NCBI GenBank assembly: GCA_964532335.1
Contig: CAZHHV010000005.1
Location: 1-33,848 of the forward strand
Reading direction: 5' to 3'
Source of the DNA: an uncultured Nitrospiraceae bacterium
Lineage (GTDB): Bacteria; Nitrospirota; Thermodesulfovibrionia; Thermodesulfovibrionales; UBA1546
Length of the DNA: 33,848 nucleotides
The translations under genes and the position numbers were made by a program. The notes under the pieces are model-generated. The model was not told the DNA's origin and did no database searches. It saw only the letters and a program-made list of their open reading frames with translations. Below, piece by piece: positions 8,013 through 33,848 of the stretch. How positions within the stretch are numbered: position 1 is the first letter of the stretch; every line of letters starts with the position of its first letter.

Positions 8013-8082
8013 AGAACCCTGTAGCAAGACCGCAGGGTATCTTAAAATAGCGGCTCTATGTTTCATACACGAAACGAGTTTT

Positions 8083-8192
8083 GTCATTCCCGCTTGTCGG
8101 GAATCCTTCTCTTGTCATTCCGACTTGTTCGGAATCCTTCAGAAAGATTGCGGACAAGCCGCAATGACAAAATAGGGACAAGCCAGAATGAC
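8083..8192. repeat. 110-bp cluster of four roughly 24-bp hairpin units (two forward, two inverted), GTCAT...ATGAC element
   Basis: gtcattcccgcttgtcgggaatcc (8083-8106), gtcattccgacttgttcggaatcc (8114-8137), gattgcggacaagccgcaatgac (8146-8168, inverted), gggacaagccagaatgac (8175-8192, inverted). Lies between asd and the next gene. Confidence 0.85.
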
Positions 8193-8248
8193 AAGAATGA
8201 ATTTCATATTATTAAAACTCATAACTCTAAACCTTTAATCAATTCGCT

Positions 8249-10154: not shown

Positions 10155-10802
10155 ATGAAGCTTTTGATGCACATCTGCTGCGCAAACTGCAGTCTTTATC
10201 CCATCAAAACACTAACTGAAAAGGGCGTTTCCGTAACAGGACTGTGGTTTAATCCCAATATCCATCCTTATGTGGAATATAAAAATAGACTGGATGCAGT
10301 TAGAAAGCTTGAGTGCCTCTGGAAAAACGATAATAAAATCCCCCCTAACCCCCCTTTATTAAAGGGGGGCGAGGGGGGATTTTTGCAAAAGGGGGAGAGG
10401 GAAGGATTCTCGTGGGGAGGAGCAGATTTTCAAGTGCATTATATAGACTGCTACGGCATCAAGGAATTCATACAGAAGACAGGCAACGGCAGTGAGAACC
10501 GCTGCAGTGCGTGTTATGAAATGAGGCTTGACAAGACAGCCCAAACAGCCAGAGAGATCGGCGCTGACGGCTTTACAACCTCGCTCCTTATAAGCCCCTA
10601 CCAGAAATTTGATGTTATAATAGACATTGGCAGAGAAATGGAGAAAAGGCACTCTGTGCAATTTTATTTTGAAGACTTCAGACCCGGCTGGAAGCAGGGG
10701 GTTGAGCTTTCAAAGGAGCTCGGGCTTTACAGGCAGAAATATTGCGGCTGCATCTATTCCGAGATGGAGAAACACCTTAAAGTTCGGGAGGAAGTGAGAT
10801 GA
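10155..10802 (+). CDS. queH: Epoxyqueuosine reductase QueH (DUF208) with an in-frame palindromic-element insertion
   Basis: 215 aa. LMHICCANCS...GLWFNPNIHPY..EY..R and CSACYEMRLD...TTSLLISPYQ...YRQKYCGCIYSE are QueH hallmarks. IPPNPPLLKGGEGGFLQKGEREGFSWGG is encoded by the repeat. Confidence 0.9.
   Translation: MKLLMHICCANCSLYPIKTLTEKGVSVTGLWFNPNIHPYVEYKNRLDAVRKLECLWKNDNKIPPNPPLLKGGEGGFLQKGEREGFSWGGADFQVHYIDCYGIKEFIQKTGNGSENRCSACYEMRLDKTAQTAREIGADGFTTSLLISPYQKFDVIIDIGREMEKRHSVQFYFEDFRPGWKQGVELSKELGLYRQKYCGCIYSEMEKHLKVREEVR
10335..10383. repeat. Nested C6/G6 palindrome (family A), copy inside queH
   Basis: Outer arms aaaatcccccct (10335-10346) and aggggggatttt (10372-10383). Inner arms cccccctTTA (10349-10358) and TAAagggggg (10360-10369). 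Confidence 0.9.
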
Positions 10803-11824
10803 AAGCTTTCAGCAATAAGCGTTCAGCGTTCAGCTTAAAAACGTGTCTTATTTTATTTTCCCTGATAGCTATAAGCTGTCAGCTGTCAGCTGATTTATAC
10901 GCCGATGCAATAAGAGTGCTTATTTTGGATGAAGATTCTCCGCGTATCCCTGCAAAGAATGAGCCTCTGGAGAAAGTCAGTGAAAAGATAAAAGGCGACT
11001 TCCTTGTGAGCGGGGTTCATTACAGGGGCGAGATTGAGGTATGGAAAGGGAAAAACGGGCTTTATGTCGTAAATGAAATCCCCTTTGAGGAATATGTCAA
11101 GAGCGTTGTCACGGCTGAGGTCGGGACCAACTGGGAAATGGAAGCGCTCAAAGCTCAGGCAGTTATTTCAAGGACGTATGCTGTATATCAAAAAAATATG
11201 AACGGAAACCTGCATTACCATATTACATCCTCTGTTCTTCATCAGGTGTACAAGGGGAACTTCTCTGATGTCAGAGCAGCAACTGCCGTAGAAAAAACAT
11301 CAGGCGAGATACTCACATTCAACGGAAACCCAATAGAGGCGCTTTACCACTCTACATGCGGCGGCAAGACAGAGCTTCCCGAAGAGGTGTTTGAGAAAAG
11401 CTACCCCTATATTAAATCAGTGGAATCAAGCTGTGAAGCCTCGCCTTACTGGATATGGGAAAGAAAAATCCCATTGTCAGAGATAGAAAAATCTTTAAAC
11501 ATAACCGTCTTTAAAGATATGGCTGTCAGGTCTTACACCTCAACCGGAAGAGTAAAAGAGGTAACTGTAACATCTGAATCAGGAGAGCGCACAATCAAAT
11601 CCAACGACTTAAGAAAACAACTCGGATGGCAAAGACTGCCGAGCACAAATTTCACCATGACAAAACTAAACGATTCCATAATCTTCGAAGGAAAAGGCTA
11701 CGGCCATGGAGTAGGCCTCTGCCAGTGGAGCGCGCTTGAGATGGCAAAAAAGGGGAAAAACTACAGGGAAATTCTTTCTTTCTTTTATCCCGGAACAGAA
11801 ATTCAGTTATATGAAGGCCGCTGA
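10799..11824 (+). CDS. SpoIID/LytB domain protein
   Basis: 341 aa. ATGA overlap with the queH stop. Signal peptide, plus AQAVISRTYAV and LYHSTCGGKTE SpoIID motifs. Confidence 0.85.
   Translation: MKAFSNKRSAFSLKTCLILFSLIAISCQLSADLYADAIRVLILDEDSPRIPAKNEPLEKVSEKIKGDFLVSGVHYRGEIEVWKGKNGLYVVNEIPFEEYVKSVVTAEVGTNWEMEALKAQAVISRTYAVYQKNMNGNLHYHITSSVLHQVYKGNFSDVRAATAVEKTSGEILTFNGNPIEALYHSTCGGKTELPEEVFEKSYPYIKSVESSCEASPYWIWERKIPLSEIEKSLNITVFKDMAVRSYTSTGRVKEVTVTSESGERTIKSNDLRKQLGWQRLPSTNFTMTKLNDSIIFEGKGYGHGVGLCQWSALEMAKKGKNYREILSFFYPGTEIQLYEGR
10811..10894. repeat. Two heptamer tandem arrays (AGCNNTN x4 each) in the SpoIID signal-peptide coding region
   Basis: agcaata agcgttc agcgttc agcttaa (10811-10838) and agctata agctgtc agctgtc agctgat (10867-10894). 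Confidence 0.8.
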
Positions 11825-12830
11825 TTTTGATTTTCACCTGCCGGAAGGACTGATAGCAAAAAAACCTTCTGACAAAAGAGACCTCTCAAGGCTTTTAGTG
11901 CTTCACAAAAACGGCAAAATAGAACACAGAATCTTCGGTAATCTCCCCGACTATCTTAATGAAGGCGACCTGCTTTTACTTAATAGCACCAAAGTTTTTC
12001 CGGCAAGACTTACAGGGGCAAAGCCTACGGGAGGAAGATTTGAATTTCTGCTGGTAAAAGAAATCGGCGTTGACAAGTGGGAAATACTATCAAAAGGAAA
12101 ATACAGAGGGGAAATATCAATAGCAGAAGGGTTATCAGCAGACATAGAAAACCAGACTGCCCGGTTTTCGTATTCCGGCGACTTCATGGAAAATGTGTGG
12201 AGATACGGAGATATGCCTTTGCCGCCGTATATAAAGCGCAAGCCGGAGCCCGTTGATAGAGAATGGTATCAGACAGTATATGCGGAAAAAGAGGGTTCCA
12301 TCGCAGCTCCGACCGCCGGAATGCATTTTACCGGAGAACTGATAGGCAAGATAAAGGACAAAGGCGTGAATGTCAGGTGCCTGACACTTCATGTAGGGAT
12401 AGGGACCTTCAAACCGATAAAAGCAGAGAATTTGAGTGAACATTCTATGGATGCAGAATATTTTGAGATAGGGAAAGAGATTATTGAAGAGATAAAAAAA
12501 ACAAAAGCCTGCGGCAAAAGAGTCTTCTCTGTTGGAACCACAACAACGAGGGCTATAGAGGGATATATGAGCGGACAATATTCACCCATTCACCCATTCA
12601 CCCATTCACCCATTCACCGGATCTGCGGTTCTACAAACATCTTCATCTATCCCGGTTATGAGTTCAGGGTTGTTGACTCCCTTATCACCAATTTTCACCT
12701 TCCACGCTCAACACCGCTTATGCTGGCATCTGCCTTCTGCGGCGCCGAAAAACTGAGAGGCGCATACAGCATTGCTGTGAGTCAAAAATATAGATTTTTC
12801 TCCTACGGTGATGCTATGCTTATCCTGTGA
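11811..12830 (+). CDS. queA: S-adenosylmethionine:tRNA ribosyltransferase-isomerase
   Basis: I start at ATG 11811 (MKAADFDFHLPEGLIAKKP, the family-typical N-terminus) rather than the track start 11736. Also VGTTTTRAIE, IFIYPGYEFRVVDSLITNFHLPRSTPLMLASAF. Confidence 0.93.
   Translation: MKAADFDFHLPEGLIAKKPSDKRDLSRLLVLHKNGKIEHRIFGNLPDYLNEGDLLLLNSTKVFPARLTGAKPTGGRFEFLLVKEIGVDKWEILSKGKYRGEISIAEGLSADIENQTARFSYSGDFMENVWRYGDMPLPPYIKRKPEPVDREWYQTVYAEKEGSIAAPTAGMHFTGELIGKIKDKGVNVRCLTLHVGIGTFKPIKAENLSEHSMDAEYFEIGKEIIEEIKKTKACGKRVFSVGTTTTRAIEGYMSGQYSPIHPFTHSPIHRICGSTNIFIYPGYEFRVVDSLITNFHLPRSTPLMLASAFCGAEKLRGAYSIAVSQKYRFFSYGDAMLIL
12581..12618. repeat. 8-bp microsatellite (TTCACCCA) x4.75 inside queA
   Basis: Direct reading gives units at 12581, 12589, 12597 and 12605, then a partial ttcacc. 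Translated as SPIHPFTHSPIH. Confidence 0.95.
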
Positions 12831-15972: not shown

Positions 15973-16393
15973 TTCAGCGGCATTGCTCCGGCTTCTCGGA
16001 CTGAAAGATGCAGAACTCAGCATCCTGCTTGTTGATGACAGCAGAATGAGGGGATTGAACTATAAATACCGCGGCATTGACAGGACTACGGATGTGCTCT
16101 CATTCCCGCAGATGAGTTATAGCGTTAAGCGCAAAGCGTTGAGCGTAAAATCCTATAACGCTATAAACGCACAACGCACAACGCTGCTCGGTGATGTCGT
16201 GATAAACCTTCAGGCAGTCAAGAGGCAGGCGCCTGAGCATGGGCTGTCATTTACCGGAGAATTGCAATGGCTTCTTGTTCATGGAGTTCTTCACCTCATC
16301 GGATATGACCATGAAAGGAGCAAATACGCTGAAAGGAAGATGCAGTCAAAGGAGAAAGAATTGCTTGGGTATCTGGGAAGGAGTAAGAATTAA
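15908..16393 (+). CDS. ybeY: rRNA maturation endoribonuclease YbeY with an in-frame repeat insertion
   Basis: 161 aa. TDVLSFP and zinc motif [36 protein letters not shown] is encoded by the repeat at 16121-16185. Confidence 0.92.
16121..16185. repeat. Inverted-arm element built from AGCGTTN heptamers, inside ybeY
   Basis: Left array agcgtta agcgcaa agcgttg agcgtaa (16121-16148). The right side, reverse-complemented, reads agcgttg tgcgttg tgcgttt atagcgtta (16154-16185). ttatagcgtta and taacgctataa form an 11-bp perfect inverted repeat. Confidence 0.8.
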
Positions 16394-17292
16394 TGCTTGC
16401 AAAACGCATAATACCGTGCCTTGATGTTAAGGACGGAAGGGTTGTAAAAGGCGTAAGCTTTCTTAATCTCAGGGATGCAGGAGACCCTGTTGAGAATGCA
16501 ATCTTTTATGATGAGCAGGGCGCTGATGAACTCGTATTCCTTGATATAACAGCATCGCATGAGAAGAGAAATATTATCCTTGACGTTGTTGAAAGGACTG
16601 CAGATGATGTATTTATGCCGCTTACAGTCGGTGGAGGAATCGGCGCTCTTGATGATATAAGACAGCTTCTGAAATCAGGATGCGATAAGGTTTCTGTAAA
16701 TACATCTGCTGTAAGAGACCCTTATTTTGTGAGCCGCGCAGCAGAGAAGTTTGGAAGCCAGTGCATTGTCGTTGCAATTGATGCGAAGCGTGTTACAAAA
16801 GAGATGACATTTACAGAAGAGGAGAAATGGTTTAATGAGCCGTCTTTAAAAGAAGTTCAGCTGGAACTGGATAAGAAAAATCCCCCTCAATCCCCCTTTG
16901 CCAAAGGGGGACTTAATAATATCCCCACTTTGCTAAAGGGGGGATTATGGGCGATATCTACACACGGCGGAAGAAAGATGAAAAGCATTGATGCTGTGCA
17001 ATGGGCAAAGAAGATGGAGGAATTGGGCGCAGGCGAGATTCTCCTTACGAGCATGAACAGGGACGGCACAAAGGACGGATATGACATTGAGCTTACAAAG
17101 GCAATTTCAGAGGCTGTGTCAATTCCTGTTATCGCCTCAGGCGGCGCAGGCAATTTAGAGCATCTCTATGAAGGACTTGTGCTTGGCAAGGCTGATGCTG
17201 TATTGGCTGCATCCATATTTCACTACAGGGAATATACAATCAAAGAGGCAAAGGAGTATTTGAAAGAAAAGGGAGTTATTGTAAGGCTTTAA
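16393..17292 (+). CDS. hisF: Imidazole glycerol phosphate synthase cyclase subunit HisF with an enlarged loop
   Basis: 299 aa. [64 protein letters not shown] junction with ybeY. Confidence 0.95.
16876..16946. repeat. Family A C/G palindromes (two hairpin modules) inside hisF
   Basis: tccccctttg/caaaggggga (16891-16911), and tccccacttt-gct-aaagggggga (16922-16944, one mismatch). Outer arms aaaaatccccct / aggggggatt. Read as [23 protein letters not shown]. Confidence 0.85.
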
Positions 17293-18363: not shown

Positions 18364-19149
18364 TTATGCGCCTGTTACTCTTCTGCGTGGAATCATTTCC
18401 AGTTTGCTTTCAGTCCCTCCCAGTTTAGCGAGCCTTCTGGCGCTTTCTCTCGCTATAAGCGCTTTTAAAAACTTCTCAACAATCCTCACAATCTCCCTGT
18501 GAATATCAGCAATGCCCTTTGAGGCTTTTACCAATTTTATTCTCTTTGGTTCTTTAGCCGTAAGCTTTAGAAAACCTTCTCTGACTTTTTTGTGAAACCT
18601 TACATCTTCAAGCTCAAGCCTGTCCCTTTTGTTTATTCTTTTGTTTCTCATAAGGCCGGTCTCAACATCGAGGTCAAGGAGTATCGTGAGGTCAGGCCTC
18701 ATCCTTCCTGTTGCAATCCTGTCAAGAGAGTCTATTAGTTTAGGGCTTATGCCCCTGCCATAGCCCTGATACGCGACAGTGGAATCGCTGAAACGGTCTG
18801 TAATGACAACCCTCCCGCTTTCAATTGCAGGAATAATCTTTTCTTTTATGTGCTGGATCCGCGCTGCGTTATAGAGCAGAAGCTCTGCCATATAATCCAT
18901 TTTGTCATGTTTAGTTGAAAGCAGAACCCTTCTTATCTCCCTGCTTATCGCAGTCCCTCCGGGCTCTTCGGTAAGCGCTGTCTCATATCCTTTTTTTGTA
19001 AGATACTCAGAAAGCATTCTTGCCTGTGTGGATTTGCCGGTGCCCTCTATTCCTTCAAAAGATATAAAAATCCCCCTCTTGCCCCCTCTACGAGCCATGG
19101 CCTTTGACAAAGGGGGGTGGGGGGGGATTTCTAATTTTCCGCCTTTCAT
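18364..19149 (-). CDS. tmk: Thymidylate kinase (start ambiguous: 19149 with ATGA coupling, or 19098)
   Basis: FISFEGIEGTGKSTQ P-loop, then TEEPGGT, DRFSDSTVAYQG. The first 17 codons (MKGGKLEIPPHPPLSKA) are repeat-derived. There is a roughly 30-aa basic C-terminal tail. Confidence 0.9.
   Translation of the reverse strand: MKGGKLEIPPHPPLSKAMARRGGKRGIFISFEGIEGTGKSTQARMLSEYLTKKGYETALTEEPGGTAISREIRRVLLSTKHDKMDYMAELLLYNAARIQHIKEKIIPAIESGRVVITDRFSDSTVAYQGYGRGISPKLIDSLDRIATGRMRPDLTILLDLDVETGLMRNKRINKRDRLELEDVRFHKKVREGFLKLTAKEPKRIKLVKASKGIADIHREIVRIVEKFLKALIARESARRLAKLGGTESKLEMIPRRRVTGA
19066..19130. repeat. Family A C/G palindrome (degenerate centre) at the tmk 5' end
   Basis: aaatccccc (19068-19076) pairs with gggggattt (19122-19130). 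Inner gccccc / gggggg runs. The central gccatggc carries the alternative ATG at 19098. Confidence 0.75.
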
Positions 19150-26614: not shown

Positions 26615-27754
26615 CTATCTCTTCATTTTTAACCACTGCATGGGGTCCAGCGGTTTCCCTTTATATCTTACCTCAAAATACAGGCCCGGCGCATTCAGGG
26701 TTCCTGATTCCCCGACCTTGCCTATGGCCTGCCATTCTTTTATTATATCTCCAACTTTATAAAAAATCTCGGCTAAATTTGCGTATAGGGTATGATAGCC
26801 TTCCCCATGACTTATTATAACAAGCTTGCCGTAACCTTTGAACCAGTCGGCAAATACAACCTTGCCCCCGTGCACTACCTTTGCCAATGCATCGTCATCC
26901 GCTTTGATATGTATGCCGTTTCTGAATACCGGCGTGTTGAACTGAGGGTCTTTCTGCGCCCCGTACGGGATTACAACCTTCCCGTTGACAGGCCAGTCCA
27001 GCTTCCCCTTCAGATTGTGAAAGCCCTTTGCGGCATATGCCTCGGCTTCCTCAGAACGCCTTATTATCTCCATAAGCCTGTTGGAAGCCTCTTTTAATTC
27101 CTTCAACATATTCTCGTAAGAAGATTTTTCCTTTCTTACAGAGGACAGAAGCATTTCTTTGCCTTTTTTCTTTTCTGCGATTGCCTTCTCGTTTGCCTGT
27201 ATCTTTTCCTCGCTTTTTTTTAGTTCGGCGTGCAGCGTCTTTAAGCGGCTTTCCTGCTCTGCAAGATTTTTTATGGTCTCTTTATAGCTGTTCAGCATCT
27301 TATGGTCGTACCCTGCCATCTCTTTAATATACCTCCACCTTCTCATCAACTGAGCTATGTCCTCCGAAGTTGAAAGCAGAATCACAACATCGCCTGAATA
27401 CCCATATTTCTGCATAACGCGAAGTTTCCTCTTAAGCCACTCCGCCTGCCTTTCGAGTTTTGCCCTGTTTACCGATATGTCTGCCTCAACCTTGCGTATC
27501 TCATTTTCCGTAACCTTTCGCTTTCCAATGTATTTTCTTAACTCCGCCTGAGTCTGGCTGAGGTCCTTATTCGTCCTGTCAAGTTCTTCAAGTACCGAAT
27601 GCTCCATCTTCTTGGCTTTCTCAAGTTTTTCCTTGTGGGTATCTATTTCTTTTTGAAGCTTCTTGTATTCTTCCTTGGGATCTTTGGCAGCAAAAGCAAT
27701 ATCGGTAAATAGTGAACAGTGAATTGTGAATAGTAAGATTAATACAAGACGCAT
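26615..27754 (-). CDS. envC: EnvC-like murein hydrolase activator (coiled coil plus degenerate LytM domain)
   Basis: I prefer ATG 27754 (MRLVLILLFTIHCSLFTDIAFA/AKDP signal peptide). The track start 27856 would add 34 repeat-encoded residues. Long coiled coil. The LytM domain lacks the zinc ligands (GIHIKA, GLYFEVRY replace HxxxD and HLHFE). Sits in ftsEX context. Confidence 0.75.
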   Translation of the reverse strand: MRLVLILLFTIHCSLFTDIAFAAKDPKEEYKKLQKEIDTHKEKLEKAKKMEHSVLEELDRTNKDLSQTQAELRKYIGKRKVTENEIRKVEADISVNRAKLERQAEWLKRKLRVMQKYGYSGDVVILLSTSEDIAQLMRRWRYIKEMAGYDHKMLNSYKETIKNLAEQESRLKTLHAELKKSEEKIQANEKAIAEKKKGKEMLLSSVRKEKSSYENMLKELKEASNRLMEIIRRSEEAEAYAAKGFHNLKGKLDWPVNGKVVIPYGAQKDPQFNTPVFRNGIHIKADDDALAKVVHGGKVVFADWFKGYGKLVIISHGEGYHTLYANLAEIFYKVGDIIKEWQAIGKVGESGTLNAPGLYFEVRYKGKPLDPMQWLKMKR

Positions 27755-27857
27755 GATGTACGATGCATGATGCCTGATACCCCCCTTTAATTCCCCCCTT
27801 GCTAAGGGGGGATAGAGGGGGGGTATATCCTGTATCTTGTATCCTGTATCCTGCATC
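27751..27857. repeat. Composite element: family A nested C6/G6 palindrome flanked by inverted heptamer arrays (ftsX-envC junction)
   Basis: gcatgat gtacgat gcatgat gcctgat (27751-27778). Outer arms atacccccc (27777-27785) and ggggggtat (27818-27826). Inner arms tcccccctt-gct-aagggggga (27792-27812). atcctgt atcttgt atcctgt atcctgc (27827-27854). A further array agtgaac agtgaat tgtgaat lies at 27711-27731. Confidence 0.85.
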
Positions 27858-33832: not shown

Positions 33833-33848
33833 TTGAATCACCCCCCTT

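Follow-up and report, generated by a model that had tools for sequence, protein, structure and literature searches.

The 33,848-nt stretch analysed here (the window; contig CAZHHV010000005.1 of an uncultured Nitrospiraceae bacterium, assembly GCA_964532335.1) carries an intact queH gene for epoxyqueuosine reductase, whose coding sequence contains, in frame, a nested palindrome built on runs of six C and six G residues. We describe this palindrome as a member of a family of small dispersed repeats, and argue that in queH it is probably read through as part of a permissive loop. The features at the queH locus are as follows:

10155 to 10802, plus strand: queH, intact, encoding 215 aa versus about 175 aa in orthologues without the insert

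10275 to 10334, plus strand: mosaic 60-nt stretch just upstream of the element, recognised by its pattern of identity to relatives and to locus L129

10335 to 10383, no strand assigned: nested C6/G6 palindrome, a copy of repeat family A, with an ATC..GAT core of 43 nt, read in the queH frame as K-IPPNPPLLKGGEGGF

10384 to 10418, plus strand: G-rich tail (LQKGEREGFSWGG), resembling a degenerate loop, 3′ arm, spacer and tag, TTTGCAAAAGGGGG-AGA-GGGAAGGATT

The open reading frame (ORF) at 10155-10802 matches the QueH family (Pfam PF02677, E 9e-55) in two stretches parted by the insert, and residues 3-52 and 107-210 of its product can be aligned with T. maritima QueH (structure 7lc5). All columns that are invariant in a 50-sequence QueH alignment, Cys and His residues included, are present. 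An earlier note, made from the letters of this DNA, had called the insertion in-frame, and the palindrome does lie within the frame of the intact ORF; the size of about 27 residues given there has to be raised to about 34, since alignment to insert-less orthologues yields 102 nt, or 34 residues (NDNK...GGAD). An AlphaFold model of the protein, built from 50 sequences (mean pLDDT 80), superposes on T. maritima QueH 7lc7 with a TM-score of 0.83 (normalised to the target) and an rmsd of 2.6 A. Because the model has a helix at residues 39-57, pLDDT below 50 at residues 62-86 and a strand at 93-96, the insert would form a helix-to-strand connection. It is predicted to occupy a disordered surface loop joining helix 2 to strand 3, in line with the surface location anticipated in the note. 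Judging from the topology of the Rossmann-like fold, this loop would lie at the N-terminal edge of the sheet, on the side opposite the strand C-termini, at which the Fe-S/active-site cysteines are placed, with the CCxxC motif after strand 1.

The palindrome itself comprises 49 GC-rich bases, AAAATCCCCCCT-AA-CCCCCCTTTA-T-TAAAGGGGGG-CG-AGGGGGGATTTT. Its two-level architecture, claimed previously, is real: the 12-nt outer arms and the 10-nt inner arms pair perfectly, mismatch is limited to the 2-nt AA/CG spacers, and a repeat finder returns 24-nt arms, 92% complementary, with 1 nt between them. The computed fold has an energy of -44.5 kcal/mol as RNA (shuffles -31.7 ± 3.3, z -3.9) and -23 kcal/mol as DNA (shuffles -10.7 ± 2.2, z -5.5); none of the 200 shuffles reached an equally stable fold in either form. 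The window contains the motif C5-N(1-6)-C5TT-N(1-9)-AAG5 three times, where shuffles predict 0.00 occurrences. On the coding strand, both phases other than the queH frame are closed by TAA. In the adjoining G-rich tail, Tandem Repeats Finder detected no tandem array; positions 10382-10408 are 74% complementary, by the repeat finder, to the left half of another family A copy in hisF (see below), and from this complementarity the tail looks like a degenerate half-unit, a resemblance that the note had overlooked.

The nearest QueH loci come from metagenome-assembled genomes of Thermodesulfovibrionales/Nitrospirota, mostly from groundwater, in which the genes keep their order and the DNA is about 85-92% identical. 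The insert was present in 4 of 81 genome orthologues and missing from the other 77; orthologues without it lack both C and G runs at the insertion site. Further insert-bearing QueH sequences occur in the protein database, always with the insert at the same site; at least 12 orthologues carry it there in intact, decayed or expanded form, and most orthologues are without it. A DNA-level survey of insert states in 12 insert-bearing orthologues found intact 42-mers at loci L202, L203, L204 and L129, decaying copies at L208 and L205, copies that have lost the inner hairpin at L206 and L207, and expanded copies at L201 and in the window. The loop triplet varies freely among these copies (TTA, GCT, ACT, GTA, GAA, CCA), and 27 of the 35 Pro codons in QueH inserts (77%) are CCC, versus 15.5% CCC in the window's other genes. 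On this sequence comparison the insert is shared at one site by a set of QueH orthologues, which the earlier note did not see. A queH allele shorter by 102 nt co-occurs in the same aquifer. The 60 nt at 10275-10334 are 46-61% identical to the nearest relatives (about 90% over the rest of queH) and 82% identical to the distant, insert-bearing L129, a pattern that points to exchange of this patch by recombination.

The element also extends far beyond this genome, to judge by the loci collected, another aspect that the note missed. Related loci totalling 1.38 Mb contain 34 core hairpins, and the 34-kb window has four to five copies. Twenty copies from relatives, oriented alike, yield one asymmetric 42-nt (14-codon) master with a mean column identity of 92%, ATCCCCCC-T(C/T/A)(A/G)-CCCCCCTTT-NNN-AAAGGGGGG-(A/G)(T/G/A)-GGGGGGAT, in which the hairpin CCCCCCTTT-loop-AAAGGGGGG has a repeated arm (the tag, ATCCCCCC or GGGGGGAT) on either side. 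An identical 42-mer lies in three unrelated genes of three assemblies (ybeY at L159, queH at L203 and GH3 at L221), and 18 of the 27 nested copies collected across all loci measure exactly 42 nt from ATC to GAT. In four groundwater metagenome sets, depth over 10344-10380 was 467-1762 versus roughly 0-20 in bins beyond the element; dozens of contigs match the element alone, and contigs break or end in it. Across the 20 aligned copies 98.8% of stem cells are paired, with a single compensatory change, C:G to T:A. Because the stems hardly vary and there is almost no covariation, this pairing reflects conservation of sequence, not structural constraint. At the QueH site the asymmetric master lies in opposite orientations depending on the group of orthologues, which means that the element was either inserted more than once independently or flipped in place between its inverted arms.

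If a hairpin is counted as deep in an ORF when the open frame has 150 codons or more and either end is at least 25 codons away, 22 of the 31 hairpins in Thermodesulfovibrionales/Nitrospirota loci are deep, against 76% of random positions (p 0.52, not different), in a census that counts orthologous copies repeatedly and draws on loci chosen around queH or by pattern match. Copies deep within long ORFs make up 14 of the 18 that are 42 nt long versus three of the nine that measure 40, 41, 43 or 44 nt (Fisher p 0.04). Read from the consensus, the 42-nt master is stop-free in three of its six orientation-by-phase readings, and all three (NPPSPPF.KGGMGGF, IPPHPPL.KGGWGD and NPPIPPLLKGGEGGF) were found in genes, while closed readings were not seen; in a closed phase of the master, TAG or TAA arises from the common loops AGT/ACT. 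The earlier suggestion that only copies landing in the open phase survive inside genes therefore stands for open, frame-preserving copies, given the length filter and the three open readings, but not for a single privileged phase.

Hosts confirmed by Pfam are ValS (two inserts), HypF (two), QueA, Nnr (two), HisF, a radical SAM protein, CbiG, RecJ, GH3, LeuS, YfiH and TonB, and YbeY carries in-frame copies in several genomes; the insert peptides themselves matched no Pfam family. The YbeY loop (SFPQ to LGDIVIN), the QueA loop and the EnvC N-terminus are hypervariable in about 60 orthologues and filled with peptides from several repeat families, and therefore represent permissive sites where repeats accumulate. 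Units may also be stacked within one loop: YbeY reaches 250 aa in L204 (15221-15973) versus about 150 aa normally, YbeY of L155 (~16100-16250) has a double insert (NTPTPPFGKDTPLPPFSKGGRGGIIAKGKGG), and in QueH of L201 (2764-3429) a further hairpin is nested within the first. These cases suggest that new units tend to land in or beside old ones.

Elsewhere in the window, three more genes hold copies, and its edge may hold another:

16393 to 17292, plus strand: hisF, 299 aa (276-279 aa in element-free relatives)

16877 to 16947, plus strand: family A dimer in frame in hisF, made of a tag and hairpin, a 9-nt spacer CTTAATAAT, and a hairpin with its tag lost

18364 to 19149, minus strand: tmk (thymidylate kinase), starting, as in relatives, at the ATG within an ATGA that overlaps the upstream gene

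19067 to 19132, minus strand: in-frame family A copy, degenerate, that adds 16 codons after MKGGK close to the N-terminus of tmk (EIPPHPPLSKAMARRGGKRGI)

26615 to 27856, minus strand: M23 peptidase gene (envC), starting after the ftsX stop

27776 to 27826, minus strand: in-frame copy of family B, IPPLYPPLARGELKGGI, within the variable stretch at the N-terminus of the EnvC-like M23 peptidase

33839 to 33848, no strand assigned: CACCCCCCTT at the window edge, possibly a cut-off fifth copy

L128, the closest relative, whose HisF is 95% identical, shares the hisF insert and retains its right tag; five other relatives do not have the hisF element. Against L128 the window's copy is shorter by 9 nt (GGGGGGCGA; window 16930-16947 compared with L128 16820-16850), an in-frame slippage deletion between two G6 runs that converts KGGEGGL to KGGL. 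The relatives of tmk begin at the same ATGA overlap, with MKG(R/I)KQKL(K/G)(K/R)G(M/I/V)FIS, so that the tmk copy is a 16-codon insert inside the gene. The M23 gene has an ATG just after the ftsX stop and a frame that stays open to the hydrophobic segment, through the variable repeat-rich stretch, in 10 of 10 relatives examined; because two of these have no internal Met, the envC copy lies within coding sequence. Comparison with relatives thus shows that neither the tmk nor the envC copy precedes the true start codon of its gene, and all four window copies are inside genes, as had been proposed. The overlap of the tmk start with the upstream stop (ATGA, 19146-19149), kept in relatives, suggests translational coupling.

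The assignment of all four copies to family A was right for queH, hisF and tmk; the envC copy belongs to a second subfamily, B (ACCCCCCTTTAATTCCCCCCTTnnTAAGGGGGGATACAGAGGGGGT). A single reading phase common to the four, also suggested before, is contradicted by arithmetic from the coordinates: for queH and tmk the C runs start at codon positions 3/3, for hisF at 1/2 and for envC at 1/1, so that three nucleotide phases are used within the window alone. Two of the three phases turn a C6 run into Pro-Pro, which is why the copies nevertheless look similar as peptides. Relatives whose flanks are about 90% identical have empty hisF and tmk sites where the window has filled ones. Where the element ends fall, the empty sites (L127 hisF, ~12080-12120; L122 tmk, ~18830-18860) read AAAT..GAAGGATT and AAAAAGGGAAT, which could be footprints of older copies or microhomology used in insertion.

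We consider it likely, with a probability of roughly 0.8, that the queH palindrome is a copy of a dispersed repeat and that a permissive loop of the protein is where it is read through. What the data show is that it belongs to the family, lies in frame and in a loop, is present in some orthologues and absent from others, and behaves alike in many housekeeping genes. On the proposed course of events, a small non-coding repeat of dispersed occurrence would have entered queH at the helix 2/strand 3 loop, the allele found in the window having probably been imported by recombination, upstream flank included. The element would be transcribed and translated along with queH as a flexible Pro/Gly-rich loop, PP-x-PP-L-x-KGG-x-GG, and the tail may be a half-unit, since degenerated, that was added later. 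Such a copy would persist because it does little harm, being 14 codons long, stop-free in half of its readings, and placed as a hydrophilic, structure-breaking peptide in a disordered loop. As for its movement, the hairpin might be mobilised in trans as single-stranded DNA, leaving no target duplication, by a hairpin-and-tag-recognising enzyme (HUH Y1 transposase) of the type that serves repetitive extragenic palindromic (REP) sequences, the REP-associated tyrosine transposases (RAYT); we put forward this RAYT-type mobilisation as a tentative proposal, more doubtful than the reading to which it is attached.

Several observations weigh against the read-through copy or its proposed way of moving. 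We looked for RNA runs containing the stretch and found none; translation is something we infer. In L203/L135/L204 the element is 93% identical and its flanks 62-75% (p 5e-4), and in a further QueH pair the values are 95% and 73%; an element better conserved than its flanks is unlike the prediction of pure neutral hitch-hiking, although in L121/L208 it is the less conserved of the two (86% vs 92%). The composition of the genic census, described above, also belongs here. Junctions between filled and empty hisF, tmk and queH sites are not clean, the empty hisF and tmk sites being already AAAT..GGATT-like, and a target duplication is indistinguishable because the flanking AT...AT is self-complementary and inseparable from the arms. 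Such junctions would fit growth by template switching at microhomology as well. Finally, no mobilising gene or recurrent neighbour family was found in the cross-phylum genome loci described below (loci, not whole genomes).

An alternative that we regard as unlikely treats the hairpin as a selected nucleic-acid signal, such as a ribosome or polymerase pause, a message stabiliser or terminator, or a DNA site for a host protein, with the peptide as a by-product. The conservation of the stems, synonymous third positions included, while the loop triplet varies would agree with this, as would the excess identity over the flanks in L203/L135/L204, the nearly complete stem pairing with its one compensatory change, and the recurrence of the same tagged hairpin in many phyla; moreover, the A-run, GC stem and T-run resemble a two-way intrinsic terminator, and a scan of the consensus flags the minus strand. 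A selected signal should not, however, be dispensable in 77 of 81 QueH orthologues, nor decay or lose its inner hairpin as in L208, L205, L206 and L207, and the genes and positions that harbour the element are unrelated and share no context, while its stems show almost no covariation. Terminator-like sites in the region number 13 versus 11.4 in shuffles, which is no excess, and a terminator in mid-gene would be harmful. Rfam had 0 matches at the gathering threshold over the whole window and, by E-value at the element, generic hairpin (miRNA-type) matches only, far below the gathering score. The intrinsic terminator was rejected on its own account: a stem and a flanking T5 are present, but in mid-gene, with the plus strand unflagged and only an alternative minus-strand pairing flagged. 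Selection on the peptide PP-x-PP-L-x-KGG-x-GG as a protein module (a linker or interaction motif), the DNA palindrome being secondary, is highly improbable. Similar peptides do occur in many proteins, always in loops or tails, yet their Pro codons have the marked CCC excess reported above, the same DNA is found outside genes too (and mostly so in other phyla), all three peptide readings of one DNA master exist, and the host proteins share neither a function nor a Pfam match to the insert.

Just as implausible is a local origin of the palindrome by slippage or duplication of C and G runs in queH, its likeness to other copies being due to convergence. Slippage does operate on these elements, as in the 9-nt loss from hisF, the inner-hairpin deletions of L206 and L207 and the expansions in L201 and the window tail; it leaves unaccounted for the asymmetric 42-mers, identical or nearly so, that unrelated genes and genomes have in common, the 0.00 chance expectation for the motif in the window, the metagenome depth hundreds-fold above the flanks, and the absence of C or G runs at the site in insert-less orthologues. 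It is conceivable, if doubtful, that the element spreads mainly by homologous recombination, with patches exchanged between orthologues or resident copies converted, instead of by fresh transposition, which would explain why the same QueH site is occupied repeatedly. Outside the 60-nt mosaic stretch, the window's queH shares about 90% identity with L122-L128; the near relative L121, about 90-94% identical outside that patch, has a different version of the element at the same site; identity in L203/L204 peaks beside the element and then falls away; and the master is oriented oppositely between groups at the QueH site, although this may also stem from independent insertions or an in-place flip. 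Recombination does not explain first arrival in unrelated genes, and the four nested copies of locus L159 differ in spacers and loops with no sign of homogenisation. A contribution of exchange between orthologous sites to the spread of the element can accordingly be suggested only with reserve; it complements the reading of the palindrome as a translated dispersed repeat and does not replace it. Three other candidates were discarded: an intein, intron or translational bypass (none of their signatures is present, and the insert keeps an open frame and has a length divisible by three), an assembly artefact (the element occurs in many independent assemblies and four runs), and a DNA uptake sequence (it is too sparse and not lineage-specific).

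Tagged hairpins of this kind are present in other phyla as well. Two pattern scans over one genome per species gave at least 120 matches each. Much of the similarity of these copies to ours is fixed by the search patterns themselves, and the copies may be either homologous or convergent. The matches listed come from Cyanobacteria, Desulfobacterota, Beta- and Gammaproteobacteria, Methylomirabilota, Dehalococcoidia, Omnitrophota, Patescibacteria, Nitrospinota and others. Among them, the usual form outside Nitrospirota is a single-tag unit consisting of the hairpin, a 2-3-nt spacer, GGGGGGAT and TT (132 of 157 instances); 34 of 144 hairpins from other phyla lie in long ORFs versus 70% of random positions (p 6e-31), and neighbouring units within 150 nt form 23 inverted and 15 nested versus 5 direct pairs. 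The tagged hairpin was also seen in 94 viral contigs. About 37 of these (within L304-L397) constitute one Mu-like phage group with shared terminase, portal and MuB-like ATPase clusters, and in 23 of the ~37 the motif is in frame in one small protein (GNPPRPPFHKGGS). All-against-all ORF clustering of the cross-phylum and viral loci gave no recurrent transposase, returning only common families and that Mu-like group.

Taken together, these data allow a broader but speculative reading, to which we give distinctly less credence than to the queH interpretation: the C6/G6 hairpins with a repeated-arm tag might together form one superfamily of miniature mobile DNA that spans phyla, travels in phages too and is moved by a widespread enzyme whose link to it has yet to be recognised. 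A Nitrospirota/Nitrospinota lineage of this superfamily would then have adapted to coding sequence, with exactly 14 codons, stop-free in half of the readings and encoding a loop-forming Pro/Gly peptide, and would enter housekeeping genes as freely as random DNA, be kept there at the nucleotide level, and repeatedly build new surface loops. If the tagged hairpins are indeed one family, co-occurrence would offer a handle on the mobilising enzyme, and the family would be a natural system for estimating the share of mobile DNA in protein loop diversity.

Other repeats were noted in passing. Heptamer-type tandem repeats are translated at the EnvC N-terminus (27826-27856), where CAGGATA-like units yield QDTGYKIQD, and at a SpoIID-like N-terminus (AGCGTTC/AGCTGTC repeats), and the QueA loop contains a translated short tandem repeat, SPIHPFTHSPIH. 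Translated short tandem repeats were recorded in the window at 27826-27856, 10810-10890 and ~12575-12610, and in loci L121-L208 and L398-L406. The intergenic gap at 8016-8247, at which alignment with relatives breaks, holds another repeat family spanning 8079-8172, with two direct 29-nt copies of TTGTCATTCCCGCTTGTCGGGAATCCTTC at 8081-8109 and 8112-8140 and an inverted third copy at 8141-8172, every copy having its own small hairpin.

The best-known palindromic repeats lying in frame within genes are those of Rickettsia, a bacterium that lives obligately inside cells and whose genome is degrading. The same behaviour is now seen in free-living groundwater Nitrospirota, for an element three times smaller and in essential genes (aminoacyl-tRNA synthetases, RecJ, HisF, Tmk). 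Gene callers and alignments of these genomes should be expected to encounter unexplained Pro/Gly inserts of 14-16 residues, and assemblies break at the element. Since the YbeY, QueA and EnvC loops act as repeat sinks, they mark permissive sites that protein engineers could use.

Literature searches on the motif strings ATCCCCCT/AGGGGGAT and CCCCCCTTT/AAAGGGGGG returned unrelated papers only, and those on Thermodesulfovibrio and palindromic repeats nothing specific. Among known systems, mitochondrial genes of Nematomorpha contain perfect inverted repeats of up to 284 bp in coding sequence, with both arms translated (PMC6649704), but these are long, mitochondrial and of animal origin, with no relation to our element in sequence or host. 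Transposable elements of the miniature inverted-repeat type (MITEs) such as ERIC, Correia and QMITE1 include intragenic, ORF-fusing copies (PMC10969869). Our element resembles them in being non-autonomous and able to create in-frame fusions, and has terminal inverted repeats trivially, as it is palindromic throughout; MITEs, however, usually measure 50-500 bp, derive from recognisable insertion sequences and have target duplications, whereas no target duplication is separable here. The small dispersed repeats (SDRs) of Nostocaceae, treated by Elhai et al. in 2008, are reportedly 21-27 nt long, nested and mobile-looking. SDRs are restricted to Nostocaceae (PMC5861425), while the present motif is cross-phylum; the cyanobacterial matches (GATCCCCCTAAATCCCCCTTAAAAAGGGGGACTTTGA...) may belong to or overlap the SDR set, a comparison made by description and not with SDR sequence.

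REP and REPIN elements are mobilised by RAYT transposases (PMC3116915, PMC3733652), and intragenic REPs are on record (PMC3733652). They share with our element a short, GC-rich, imperfect palindrome in many dispersed copies, a conserved asymmetric tag at one foot, and a tendency to inverted doublets, represented here by the excess of inverted and nested over direct pairs among the matches listed and, in the window, by the hisF dimer. They differ in the tag, which in our case is a repeat of the hairpin arm plus AT (GGGGGGAT; at the other end ATCCCCCC) with no GTAG or CGTC, and in their mostly extragenic location, a trait found among the matches listed from other phyla (34 of 144 in long ORFs) but not in this order, where 22 of 31 hairpins are deep in ORFs. 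In addition, no RAYT gene is linked to the element in the loci examined (loci, not whole genomes), and REP families are usually species- or genus-specific, whereas nearly the same sequence recurs here across phyla. Closest in behaviour are the Rickettsia palindromic elements (RPEs), dispersed palindromes inserted in frame in unrelated housekeeping genes and translated there as added peptide, as is thought at structurally permissive positions (PMC10969869, summarising Ogata et al. 2000). The queH element and its relatives likewise enter unrelated protein genes in frame at permissive sites and would be read as extra peptide. RPEs (RPE-1 to RPE-10) are about 100-150 bp long and confined to Rickettsia, while our element has a 42-nt C6/G6 core, a free-living Nitrospirota host and motif relatives in many phyla; the two are thus set apart by size, composition and host, not by direct sequence comparison. 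The element described here works like RPEs and intragenic REPs, and is a member of neither family.

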